Notes under the pieces: model-generated
What the model was told of the DNA's origin: nothing
Seen by the model: the letters and a program-made list of their open reading frames with translations, nothing else
Database searches by the model: none
Assembly (NCBI GenBank): GCA_038232575.1
Contig: JBBSNQ010000001.1
Span: forward strand, 1 to 27,975
Origin: Solirubrobacterales bacterium
GTDB taxonomy: Bacteria; Actinomycetota; Thermoleophilia; Solirubrobacterales; Thermoleophilaceae
DNA length: 27,975 bases
Direction of reading: 5' to 3'
Part shown: positions 10,739 to 27,975 of the stretch, piece after piece
How positions within the stretch are numbered: position 1 is the stretch's first letter
How the letters are laid out: each line of letters begins with the position of its first letter
Translations under genes and position numbers: made by a program

Positions 10739-10792
10739 GGCGCCGCGGCCCAGGAGTCGGCCGCGCGCCACAGGCGACCGGAAAGAGTAGCA
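10739..10792 (-). promoter_or_regulatory. Extended -10 (TGcTACTCT, hexamer 10789-10784) plus leader hairpin (10769-10739) for the rpmJ-alpha cluster
   Basis: TGn-TANNNT lies immediately after the map stop. The stem GGCGC-GCGGCC/GGCCGC-GCGCC gives 11 bp with one bulge. Confidence 0.5.
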
Positions 10793-23648: not shown

Positions 23649-23667
23649 GTGTGGTTCGGTCGAGTCA

Positions 23668-24855
<1,188 letters not shown>

Positions 24856-24920: not shown

Positions 24921-27032
24921 TTACGCCGCCGCTCGGCTGGTCTCGCCGGTGCGGTGCTCGACGATCTCCTCCGCGATGCTCTGCGGAACCTCTTCGTAGC
25001 TATCAAACTGCATCGTGTAGCTGGCACGGCCCTGGGTAGTCGAGCGCAGGTCCGTCGCGTACCCGAACATCTCCGAGAGCGGCACCCGCGCACCCACCGC
25101 GAGCGCGTTGCCGCGCGGCTCCTGTCCCTCGACGCGCCCGCGGCGCCGCGAGAGGTCGCCGATCACGTCGCCGAGGAAGTCCTGCGGCGTGACGACCTCG
25201 ACCGCCATCACGGGCTCGAGCAGCGCGGGGCTGGCGCGGCGCGCGGCCTCCTTGAGCGCGAGCGAGCCGGCGATCTTGAAGGCGATCTCGGAGGAGTCTG
25301 TGTCGTGGTACTTGCCGTCGGTCAGGGTCGCGCGCACGTCGACCATCGGGTAGCCGGCCTTGACGCCCGTCTCGAGCGCCTCCTCGATGCCCTTCTCGAC
25401 CGCGGGGATGAACTCTGACGGCACCGACCCCCCCTTCACCTTGTTGACGAAGTTGAAGCCCTCGCCGGGCGTCGGCTCGAGGTTGATGTAGACAACGCCG
25501 TACTGGCCCGACCCACCGGTCTGGCGGATGAACTTGCCCTCGATGCGGCTGACGTCGGAGCGGATCGTCTCCCGATACGCGACCTGCGGCCGGCCGACGC
25601 CCGCCTCGACCTTGAACTCCCGCTTCATGCGATCGACGATCACGTCGAGGTGGAGCTCGCCCATCCCGGAGATCACCGTCTGGCCGGTCTCCTCGTCGCT
25701 GCGCACCTGAAAGGTCGGATCCTCCTCGGCGAGCCGCCCGAGCGCGATCGACATCTTCTCCTGATCGGCCTTCGTCTTGGGCTCGATCGATACGTGGACG
25801 ACGGGTGCCGGGAAGGAGATCGTCTCGAGCCGCACCGGAGCGGCCGGAACGCAGAGCGTGTCGCCGGTCGAGGTCTGCTTGAGGCCGACCGCGGCCGCTA
25901 TGTCGCCCGCGTAGGCCTGCTCCTGCTCCTCGCGGTGGTTGGCGTGCATCACGAGGATGCGTCCGGCGCGCTCGGTGCGCCCCGTGCTCGCGTTGAGCAC
26001 GCGCGCGCCGGCCTCGAGCCGCCCCGAGTAGACGCGGAAGTAGGTCAGCTTGCCGACGAACGGGTCCGACATGACCTTGAAGGCGAGCGCCGCGAACGGT
26101 CCCTCGTCGGAGGCGGGGCGAGTCGTCGGGCGCTCCTCCTCCTCCCCCTTGGCGGGCGGCTCGAGGCCCTCGACCGCCGGCACGTCGAGCGGGCTCGGAA
26201 GGAAGTCGATGACCGCATCTAGCAGCGGCTGGACGCCCTTGTTCTTAAACGAGGAGCCGCACAACACGGGAGTGATCGAGATGTCGAGCGTGGCAGCACG
26301 GATCGCCGACTTCAGCTTCTCGGCGCCGATCGACTGCTCCTCGAGGTAGGCCTCAGCGACCTCGTCATCGTGGTCGGCGACGGTCTGCACCAGCTGAGCG
26401 CGCGCCTTCTCGGCCTCGGCGGCCATCGCCTCCGGAACCTCCTCGACCGTCCACTCCCGCCCGAGGTCGTCGGAGTAGACGATCGCCTGCATGTTGATCA
26501 GGTCGACGATGCCGCCGAACTCCGCCTCGCTCCCGATCGGCAGCTGCAGCGGCAGCGGGTTTGCTCCGAGCCGATCGACCATCGTCTTGAGACTCTGCTG
26601 GAAGTCGGCGCCGATGCGGTCCATCTTGTTGATGTAGGCGATCCGCGGCACGCGGTACTTGTCCGCCTGGCGCCACACGGTCTCCGACTGGGGCTCGACC
26701 CCGGCGACCGAGTCGAAGACGGCGATCGCCCCGTCGAGCACCCTCAGCGAGCGCTCGACCTCGACCGTGAAGTCGACGTGCCCCGGCGTGTCGATGATGT
26801 TGACGCGGTGATCGCGCCAGAACGCGGTCGTCGCCGCCGAGGTGATCGTGATGCCGCGCTCCTGCTCCTGCGCCATCCAATCCATCGTCGCCGCGCCCTC
26901 GTGAACCTCCCCGAGCTTGTGGGTTCGACCCGTGTAATAGAGGATGCGCTCGGTGGTCGTCGTCTTGCCGGCATCGATGTGCGCCATGATGCCGATGTTG
27001 CGCGTTCTATCGAGTGGGCTCTGTCGTGGCAT
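24921..27032 (-). CDS. fusA: Elongation factor G (canonical)
   Basis: [26 protein letters not shown] and GMGELHL motifs; 703 aa. Confidence 0.99.
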
Positions 27033-27042
27033 TGTGCTTGGT

Positions 27043-27062
27043 GTACCGAGGCGTATCGAGGC
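27043..27062. repeat. 10-bp tandem direct repeat (GTACCGAGGC / GTATCGAGGC) in the fusA 5' UTR
   Basis: Two adjacent copies with one mismatch, between the terminator and the fusA ATG. Confidence 0.6.
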
Positions 27063-27064
27063 AG

Positions 27065-27086
27065 AAAAAAGGCCCTTCCGGGCCCT
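27065..27086 (-). terminator. Intrinsic terminator in the fusA leader
   Basis: Minus strand AG-GGCCC-GGAA-GGGCC-TTTTTT: GC stem, GNRA tetraloop and U6 tract, 32 nt upstream of the fusA ATG. Confidence 0.75.
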
Positions 27087-27116
27087 GTGGTGCGCAGGTG
27101 CTCGCTGCCCGGAGGG
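27073..27116 (-). promoter_or_regulatory. Antiterminator helix competing with the terminator
   Basis: CCCTCCGGGC (27116-27107) is complementary to GCCCGGAAGGG (27083-27073): 10 bp with one bulged A. Confidence 0.65.
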
Positions 27117-27122
27117 ATCGTT

Positions 27123-27143
27123 CTATGTGGTGTGAGTCCTCAT
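27123..27143 (-). CDS. Leader peptide MRTHTT (putative attenuator uORF)
   Basis: ATG AGG ACT CAC ACC ACA TAG. The stop lies 6 nt before the antiterminator strand. Confidence 0.6.
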
Positions 27144-27180
27144 GCTGGTGTCTGATGATGCCCCGCGCGGGAGAGAGCCT

Positions 27181-27816
27181 GTGAGCAGCCCGCCTCCCGA
27201 GCGCCGAGGCGGCTCGAAAGCGACCGACGATGCTAGCAAAGGCGGGCGTGCTGCACGCGGGACGGGGCGCGCGGCGCGGGCGCTTGCGGGCGGCGTGGCG
27301 CGCAGCTCGACGCGCGGGACGGGCGCCTTCCTGCGCGGCGTCGGCGCGGCGAGCTGGACCGAGCGGCTGGTGCTCGCCCTCGGCATGGCGGCGGCGGTGC
27401 TGCTTGTGGCCGCCGAGCTCACGCCGCTGTACGCGATCGACGTGGCGGGGGCGAGCTGCGATGTCGTCGCCGAGCCCGCGCTGCGCGATCAGTGCGTGAC
27501 GACGGGCGGCAACGCGCACTCCTACGGCTTCCTACTGCTCGCGCTGCTGGCGCTGGCGATGACCTTCGGCGCCGCGTTCGGCGGCAGCGCCCCTGCGGGC
27601 GCCGCGCTCTGCACGCTCGGGGTGGTCGTGCTGGCGATCTCGCTCGGCCGCGACCTGCCGGCCGCGCGGTCGACCGGCGAGATCGGCGTGCAGTTCCTCC
27701 AGGCCAACGCCAGCATCGCGGTCGGGCTCTGGTTCGAGCTCGCGGCGGGCCTGCTCGCGATCGCGGCGGGCGTCGTGCGGTTGCGGTGGCGGCGGCCGCG
27801 CGAGGAGCGCGCCTAA
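27181..27816 (+). CDS. Hypothetical membrane protein (about 4 TM helices, Cys pair in a loop)
   Basis: Basic disordered N-terminus followed by hydrophobic segments, with loop ASCDVVAEPALRDQC. GTG 27181 is preferred because of the GGGAGAG SD and because ATG 27142 overlaps the fusA uORF. Confidence 0.7.
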   Translation: MSSPPPERRGGSKATDDASKGGRAARGTGRAARALAGGVARSSTRGTGAFLRGVGAASWTERLVLALGMAAAVLLVAAELTPLYAIDVAGASCDVVAEPALRDQCVTTGGNAHSYGFLLLALLALAMTFGAAFGGSAPAGAALCTLGVVVLAISLGRDLPAARSTGEIGVQFLQANASIAVGLWFELAAGLLAIAAGVVRLRWRRPREERA

Positions 27817-27845
27817 ACGCCGGGATCCCGGGCGCTGCCTGCGCG

Positions 27846-27867
27846 GGGCCTGACTCCGGTGAGGCCC
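27846..27867. terminator. Possible stem-loop downstream of the membrane protein gene
   Basis: GGGCCT...AGGCCC stem with inner AC/GT pairs and no U-tract. Confidence 0.3.
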
Positions 27868-27890
27868 TCGTCGCGGCGCTCGGTTCGGGC

Positions 27891-27975
27891 TTACGCCTCG
27901 TTGGGTGCGCAGCGGCTCTCGGGTGCGAGTGGTGCGTCGCTTTCGCCCTCGCTCGCGGGTGGCGACGAGGTCCCC
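27891..27975 (-). CDS. Possible 3' end of a convergent gene (..SSPPASEGESDAPLAPESRCAPNEA*)
   Basis: Only an open frame from the window edge to TAA 27893-27891. No recognisable motif. Confidence 0.25.
   Translation of the reverse strand, partial: GTSSPPASEGESDAPLAPESRCAPNEA

Follow-up and report, generated by a model that had tools for sequence, protein, structure and literature searches.

How is the supply of elongation factor G (EF-G) set in a bacterium whose fusA gene does not follow rpsL and rpsG? The way in which EF-G and EF-Tu supply is matched to ribosome number is known mainly from Escherichia coli, where it involves coupling to S7 at the level of translation and promoters controlled by the growth rate. 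The question is raised by a 27,975-nucleotide (nt) stretch of DNA, hereafter the window, from a Solirubrobacterales bacterium (assembly GCA_038232575.1, contig JBBSNQ010000001.1). The window is the entire contig C1 of a metagenome-assembled genome (MAG; 1.94 Mb, 411 contigs, 71% G+C). On its minus strand, a compact element of about 190 nt precedes fusA and contains a promoter, a very short upstream open reading frame (uORF), a pairing segment called here the box, and an intrinsic terminator. The essential, single-copy fusA is detached from rpsL-rpsG and, throughout the Solirubrobacterales, an order of soil bacteria, is headed by its own promoter and by a terminator whose gating by the uORF is predicted. 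We propose that the leader is probably a ribosome-dependent (leader-peptide) transcription attenuator, similar in type to those of whiB7 and trp, heading a fusA-tuf-rpsJ translation operon.

A sequence-only reading of the window had placed the uORF, the box and the terminator in front of fusA, and had claimed a 10-bp pairing of the box with a segment overlapping both arms of the terminator. Direct reading of the minus strand gives the same positions and the same pairing (Table 1). The uORF ends in the rare codon ACA followed by the stop TAG; the box sits 6 nt past this stop, and the fusA ATG 32 nt past the T-run of the terminator. The partner of the box, GCCCGGAAGGG (27083-27073), forms seven contiguous base pairs, one bulged A and three further base pairs, that is 10 bp over 11 nt. 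It overlaps both terminator arms, and pairing with the box therefore excludes the terminator. The first part of the leader, upstream of the uORF, folds at -34 kcal/mol (z -0.85).

Table 1. Position of the leader elements and of the nearest genes in the window
Feature	Position	Strand	Remarks
Extended -10 promoter element TGCTAGCAT	27230-27238	-	TGCTAnnnT, kept in 73/73 distinct leaders
5' part of the leader	27144-27224	-	Conserved GTCGCTTTCG-like start and long hairpin; length varies among relatives
uORF MRTHTT* (ATG AGG ACT CAC ACC ACA TAG)	27123-27143	-	6 sense codons; read directly
Antiterminator 5' strand (box, C/G) CCCTCCGGGC	27107-27116	-	From +7 to +16, counted from the uORF stop; partner 27083-27073 in the minimum free energy fold
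Intrinsic terminator	27065-27086	-	Terminator scan; GGCCC 27084-27080, loop GGAA, GGGCC 27075-27071, T6 (U6 tract) 27070-27065
fusA (EF-G, 703 amino acids)	24921-27032	-	Pfam GTP_EFTU, EFG_III, EFG_IV, EFG_C; first gene 3' of the leader
tuf (EF-Tu)	23668-24855	-	Pfam
Divergent membrane-like protein gene	27295-27816	+	No Pfam match; G+C at third codon positions (GC3) 0.91; homologues in relatives

The terminator has no counterpart in the rest of the contig, where no other terminator-like site has a clean T-run, and its T6 is the only T6 or A6 run on either strand. The organism is present in DNA runs of soil and rock samples (X1-X5), and the leader sequence is matched by DNA contigs of two independent samples (X1 and X2), with zero differences within 27033-27143. 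A search of 26500-27975 against Rfam (cmscan, E≤10) returned three chance-level matches only, none inside the leader and none to a ribosomal-protein leader family.

The same leader unit, with the same order of parts and similar spacing, is found upstream of fusA in relatives whose EF-G is 68-83% identical. A covariance model, R1, was built from 32 leaders (alignment A1). It matches the genome of the window once, at 27059-27155, with no further copy there, and matches 123 of the 151 Solirubrobacterales genomes sampled (106 of the 127 of high quality), almost always singly. None of the 125 genomes from seven other families of the same class is matched. The element is thus an order-wide, one-per-genome feature. 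One genome, G114, carries a second complete copy before tuf, with its own promoter, uORF (MRTMST*) and terminator, which ties the leader module to elongation-factor genes. The two G114 copies (L127 and L156, G114:C1:1053119-1057500) are 2.3 kb apart; that of tuf has a TGCTATCAT promoter box and lies 88 nt before the gene.

The conservation counts given below rest on 73 distinct leaders collected from relatives. An in-frame uORF is present at the same place in all of them, with exactly six sense codons in 64; the others have 7, 8 or 9, so that only whole-codon changes occur. It starts with ATG in 69 leaders, GTG in three and TTG in one. The consensus peptide is M-E-[T/S/N]-[S/P/R]-[T/S/A]-[T/R]. 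Codons 3 to 5 vary mostly at the third base (ACC/ACG/ACT/ACA) and follow the G/C preference of the genome, and both TCN and AGC codons are used for Ser. This variation looks like that expected of a translated, selected peptide and not of a pure RNA motif. Taken together, the sense codons of the uORF and the 12 nt that precede it contain 28% A and 25% G, compared to 16% and 36% for the strand; this A-rich, G-poor composition would leave the start site free of structure.

In the 64 six-codon uORFs, position 3 is Thr or Ser in 48 cases and position 5 likewise in 48, and Thr is found at position 6 in 38. This enrichment, together with the three Thr codons of the window copy, recalls an amino-acid attenuator that senses the charging of Thr/Ser-tRNA through a Thr/Ser-rich leader peptide. 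Such an explanation is very unlikely, as many copies contain no Thr or a single one (e.g., MENGAT, MVSHSR, MESDRR, MEAETG), the uORFs lack a tandem run of regulatory codons, and the genes controlled encode translation factors, not enzymes of Thr/Ser biosynthesis. It would also imply the production of more EF-G and ribosomal proteins under starvation, which goes against the logic of stringent control. The supply of Thr/His-tRNA, which the sequence-only reading had listed among the possible signals, finds no support either: His is not conserved in the uORF.

The last sense codon is of the NNA type in 68 of the 73 uORFs (93%), compared to 2.6% of NNA codons in fusA and tuf; in the six-codon uORFs it is ACA in 37 cases and AGA in 10. 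The stop is TAG in 56 leaders and TAA in 17, never TGA. In bacteria with a high G+C content, TGA is expected to be the commonest stop. The restriction to TAG/TAA and the NNA codon suggest a special tuning of the uORF at its end.

The minimum free energy (MFE) folds calculated with RNAfold for the 141-nt leader and for 27122-27065 both use the box antiterminator (-21.4 kcal/mol), which excludes the terminator, as the claim of mutually exclusive structures had it. The isolated terminator hairpin is worth -10.0 kcal/mol and the box-terminator duplex of the window -15.9 kcal/mol. A weak pairing of the 1:2 type (GAGG/CCUC) had also been suggested. It amounts to 4 bp, the MFE fold pairs the GAGG of the uORF with a CCUC downstream, before fusA, instead of that of the box, and no recurrence was seen in relatives, which were not all checked pair by pair. 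The z-scores of the single-sequence folds are unremarkable (0.34 and -1.04), and the case therefore rests on the comparison with relatives, which is strong and puts the leader far outside what chance would give.

In this comparison, the MFE fold of the free RNA, from the uORF to the terminator, disrupts the terminator in 20 of 32 leaders. When the spacers are replaced by dinucleotide-shuffled ones (100 trials), the number is 8.0 ± 2.1 with a maximum of 14, and none of the 100 trials reaches 20. The region from +4 to +18 after the stop pairs with at least 4 nt of the 5' arm of the terminator in 17 of 32 leaders, compared to 5.9 ± 2.0 with shuffled spacers. The pairing potential is concentrated close to the uORF: in 71 leaders, the duplex between the first 20 nt after the stop and the 5' arm plus loop is worth -12.7 kcal/mol (-10.0 ± 0.3 when shuffled), versus -5.1 kcal/mol for the rest of the spacer. 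Pairing each box with the terminators of other leaders, a control for composition, gives -12.04 ± 0.22, versus -12.85 for cognate pairs, and none of 2000 permutations reaches the cognate value. The box and the loop also change in step across leaders (UCC-GGA, AUCC-GGAU, ACA-UGU, UCGC-GCGA, UUC-GAA, CUC-GAG).

These controls bear on the idea that there is no switch at all, the hairpin-U6 being a constitutive partial terminator or an RNA-stabilising element and the uORF a passive one. The modest stability of the single-sequence folds would agree with it, as would the fact that half of the relatives favour the terminator at equilibrium and that a genus without the uORF keeps a promoter-proximal hairpin-U8. 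A terminator located between a conserved promoter and an essential gene, combined with a box that outperforms both shuffled and permuted controls, is on the contrary the signature of conditional termination, and a passive uORF leaves its codon-level constraint unexplained. We consider the idea most improbable.

The effect of a ribosome was modelled by keeping the nucleotides beneath it single-stranded and calculating the equilibrium probability of the terminator stem. The mean probability is 0.49 for the free RNA, and 0.52, 0.72, 0.84 and 0.91 when 5, 9, 11 and 13 nt are masked after the stop. For the window copy the respective values are 0.02 (free), 0.00, 0.45, 0.99 and 0.97. The predicted fold thus switches to the terminator when 9 to 13 nt are masked past the uORF stop. 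The footprint of a bacterial ribosome whose A site holds the stop codon extends about 9 nt past this codon. The point of switching hence coincides with the leading edge of a terminating ribosome, and ribosomes at earlier codons of the uORF would leave the box free.

Taken together, these results support, at the level of computation, the proposal of a leader with a ribosome-sensing uORF, an antiterminator and a terminator before a housekeeping EF-G gene. The proposal withstood every computational test that had been named for it beforehand; the uORF, the terminator and the competing helix were found conserved in relatives, and the conserved promoter lies upstream of 27065 and not downstream.

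From the comparison of the leaders, we infer that the uORF is translated and that the hairpin terminates transcription. Transcription would begin at the conserved extended -10, and the nascent leader would present the A-rich, unstructured start site of the six-codon uORF. If a ribosome reaches the uORF stop before the polymerase completes the terminator, its footprint would lie over the first part of the box. The 5' arm and loop of the terminator would then be out of reach of the covered box, so that the GGCCC/GGGCC hairpin followed by U6 could form and end transcription some 35 nt ahead of fusA. With a late ribosome, or with none, the box would pair with the 5' arm and loop and the polymerase would read through into fusA, tuf and the ribosomal-protein genes. 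Lateness might arise from a shortage of free ribosomes, from slow translocation or decoding, from a pause at the rare NNA last codon or from a translation inhibitor. As to the sign of the response, a poor translation capacity would lead to more EF-G, EF-Tu and ribosomal proteins, and since the operon encodes factors that set the speed of elongation, the loop would be homeostatic. The step that is sensed could be initiation or translocation, the decoding of the rare NNA codon, release through RF1, or recycling by EF-G and RRF.

The hexapeptide uORF may even be a dedicated speedometer of the elongation and termination machinery, in which the time taken by a single ribosome for initiation, five translocations and the decoding of one rare codon, before an RF1-readable stop at a fixed distance from the box, gates an operon of EF-G, EF-Tu and about thirty ribosomal proteins. 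We offer this version tentatively, as less likely than not. If true, it would mean that an entire bacterial order autoregulates its translation capacity directly and without a protein, as a substitute for the feedback of the S7/L4 type lost when fusA was split from rpsL-rpsG.

A related explanation keeps the same parts and changes the step that is sensed, from arrival at the uORF stop to termination or recycling there. The RF1-readable stop, the rare NNA codon and the extreme shortness of the uORF would tune the time that the ribosome dwells on the stop, and the output would report on RF1, RRF or recycling by EF-G. Its sign might be the opposite one, with low EF-G prolonging the occlusion and increasing termination. 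The stop and last-codon statistics given above agree with it, as does the geometry of the masking test, since the box is reached only by a ribosome at the stop codon. The recycling phase is moreover a large share of the ribosome time on short open reading frames, and stalling at the leader stop has been proposed for fusB (PMC4838388). It would however amount to a positive feedback on an essential factor, which would be an odd design. Termination is also decided once, within about 80 nt after the uORF start, and the time of arrival should for that reason outweigh the time of residence. We regard this explanation as unlikely.

Several observations weigh against the proposed attenuator. The terminator stem is near-invariant in the 73 leaders (92% of cells paired) and is therefore uninformative as to covariation, giving no support of this kind. 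The core of the box, at +11 to +16 after the stop, is at the extreme edge of the footprint, so that occlusion would be partial, and with 9 nt masked the window copy forms the terminator to 45% only. For about half of the relatives, formation of the terminator is predicted without any ribosome. The sequences of the relatives are related to each other, and the statistics of shuffling and permutation consequently overstate their independence. The uORF has no consistent Shine-Dalgarno sequence in the 73 leaders; fusA and rpsJ likewise have none. In genus g34, of which R1 matches none of six genomes, the promoter is followed directly by a hairpin-U8, with no uORF. Finally, 24 runs contain parts of 26400-27975, and those of RNA reach only the conserved GTPase region of fusA, none of them the leader; the RNA contigs over this region come from two metatranscriptomes and were contributed by many organisms.

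The leader of genus g34 (L024 and L160, G040:C20) has a TGCTATAGT promoter box, then a GCCCUGC-UUCG-GCGGGGC hairpin and U8, and continues for about 150 nt after the hairpin up to a fusA with a GTG start. This arrangement is a reduced or a different version of the leader. Another genome, G093 (70% complete), has two contigs (C16 and C36; L157 and L158) which each carry fusA with a similar but non-identical leader, either through a duplication or because two strains were binned together.

The position of the promoter determines whether the terminator belongs to the fusA transcript. What is conserved is an extended -10 that lacks a -35 element, located 29-108 nt (median 65) upstream of the uORF and followed by a conserved GTCGCT-like start. 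We infer from its position that transcription starts about 7 nt downstream of the -10, near 27223. The promoter is upstream of the terminator, and the latter would fall within the 5' leader of fusA, given this predicted start. A scan of the window with the sigma-70 consensus found no promoter. The possibility that the uORF is leaderless was ruled out, as there is no TANNNT at the right distance before its ATG and the conserved -10 is 29-108 nt upstream.

The window contains only two TGCTAnnnT sites. The second one (TGCTACTCT, 10784-10792, minus strand) directly follows the stop of map, before rpmJ-rpsM-rpsK, and a GGTCGC-like start comes next. It is likely an internal promoter of the fusA-leader type, which may re-supply the distal part of the operon.

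The product of the window fusA is the best EF-G match of the genome and has all the EF-G domains. After tuf, rpsJ starts 19 nt further on, and the S10/spc/alpha ribosomal-protein genes, secY, adk, map and rpoA follow on the same strand. The scan for terminator-like structures with a T-run found no terminator between tuf, rpsJ and the S10/spc genes, and no other such site for more than 16 kb 3' of the leader; the leader may thus gate much of a translation super-operon. Neither fusA nor rpsJ has a Shine-Dalgarno sequence, only A/C-rich spacers (27033-27064 and 23649-23667, minus strand), whereas most internal genes of the operon have GGAG-type sites.

This gene content invites a different explanation, in which a protein encoded by the operon or some other RNA-binding protein attaches to the leader and either favours or blocks termination. 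L4, which acts on the S10 leader of E. coli, S7 and EF-G itself are candidates, and the uORF would be secondary. The operon, running from fusA-tuf into rpsJ-rplC, includes S10-operon genes, and conservation of the terminator stem and of the 5' start of the leader extends to their sequence and is not one of structure alone, which is often the case for protein sites. Attenuators made up of structure only have also been predicted elsewhere, near rpsL and fusA (PMC2965389). A protein site nevertheless does not account for a uORF so strictly kept in its frame, length, start, stop and codons, nor for the fixed distance between the box and the stop, and no ribosomal-protein leader of Rfam matches the region. 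It is quite improbable in our view.

The gene upstream of the leader is divergent from fusA. Its longest frame (27142-27816, plus strand) overlaps the leader and encodes a hydrophobic product. In this frame GC3 is 0.91 and the G+C content at second positions (GC2) 0.61, as in fusA and tuf, and the overlapping minus-strand frames differ. About 19 relatives encode homologues upstream of fusA on the opposite strand, and their alignment begins at residues 26-107, mostly around 75-95. Since both the homology and the codon bias set in about 50-90 codons after the start of the longest open reading frame, the true start probably lies close to 27295, which makes the leader intergenic. In an automatic annotation, this start would probably be set too far upstream. 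The divergent gene is conserved between rpsG and fusA across the order. That the hairpin might be the terminator of a co-directional upstream gene was ruled out: the codon bias puts the neighbouring open reading frame on the opposite strand, an arrangement kept in relatives.

In the genome of the window, rpsL-rpsG are on a separate contig, C3. In relatives, rpsG lies 200-1170 nt upstream of fusA, often with the divergent gene between them, and in other Thermoleophilia and other Actinomycetota it abuts fusA, without a leader. The last 149 bases of the contig (27827-27975) are a dispersed repeat, with at least 29 copies at 82-92% identity in the 1.9-Mb MAG, many of them at contig ends. One copy follows rpsG on C3 (L005, G000:C3, 362-510), in an orientation that would give a long inverted repeat if the two contigs adjoin. 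Metagenome depth jumps about 100-fold at the contig-end repeat, which is probably an element similar to a miniature inverted-repeat transposable element (MITE) or a repetitive extragenic palindrome (REP) that breaks the assembly.

If the proposed mechanism is true, the fusA leader would be a clean natural example of a ribosome gauging its own performance to set the transcription of the translation apparatus. It would also mean that the logic of antibiotic-resistance leaders (whiB7, erm, genes of ABC-F proteins) serves core housekeeping genes as well. The length of six codons, the NNA last codon and the stop that is never TGA could inform how context shapes termination and recycling on very short open reading frames.

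The proposed attenuator can be compared with several known systems. In the trpL, thrL and hisL attenuators, a ribosome at the leader stop masks region 2, and the 3:4 terminator forms. The fusA leader has the same succession of a uORF, a region 2 and a 3:4 terminator, but it has no tandem cognate codons and no conserved 1:2 anti-antiterminator, its uORF is only six codons long, and its genes encode translation factors. The leader of the E. coli S10 operon is attenuated by L4 in a NusA-dependent manner. Like this leader and the predicted rpsL and fusA leaders, the one described here has a hairpin and a U-tract ahead of the opening gene of a translation operon, at a distance of a few tens of nt. 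The former have no uORF and are thought to be controlled by proteins, whereas the uORF is here the best-conserved part.

The tet(M) gene of Tn916 is controlled by leader-peptide transcription attenuation. The fusB gene has a leader of 20 amino acids that acts by translational attenuation, through unmasking of the ribosome-binding site, and EF-G-dependent steps dominate on very short open reading frames (PMC4838388). Both resemble the fusA leader in having a short uORF before a gene whose product resembles EF-G or acts with it, and a readout of ribosome stalling by the uORF, also of stalling at the leader stop, has been proposed. They are mobile resistance genes, however, while fusA is chromosomal and essential, its control is predicted to occur by transcription termination, and its leader is vertically conserved across an order.

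The sequence-only reading knew of no attenuator described on a canonical fusA. This statement needs qualifying, as a structure-only attenuator, without a uORF, has been predicted for streptococci in the rpsG-fusA interval (PMC2965389); searches of full-text literature found no description of an attenuator with a uORF on fusA or in Solirubrobacterales.

The whiB7 leader is another case from the Actinomycetota. Efficient translation of its uORF leads to a Rho-independent terminator, while translation stress leads to an antiterminator and read-through (PMC10274678). Common to both leaders are a distal promoter, a short uORF (whose translation is predicted in the case of fusA), a terminator before the structural gene and an antiterminator, and no sequence similarity between the two was detected (Rfam, no match). 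The whiB7 uORF is longer, diverse in sequence and Ala-rich, and the gene encodes a transcription factor of antibiotic resistance (PMC10274678). The fusA leader encodes instead a hexapeptide whose last codon is a rare NNA, ahead of a TAG/TAA stop, and its target is housekeeping EF-G, followed by EF-Tu and ribosomal-protein genes. The class of mechanism is thus well known; what is new is the target, a canonical essential EF-G gene and its operon, the vertical conservation over a whole order, and the design that combines a hexapeptide, an NNA codon and an RF1 stop.

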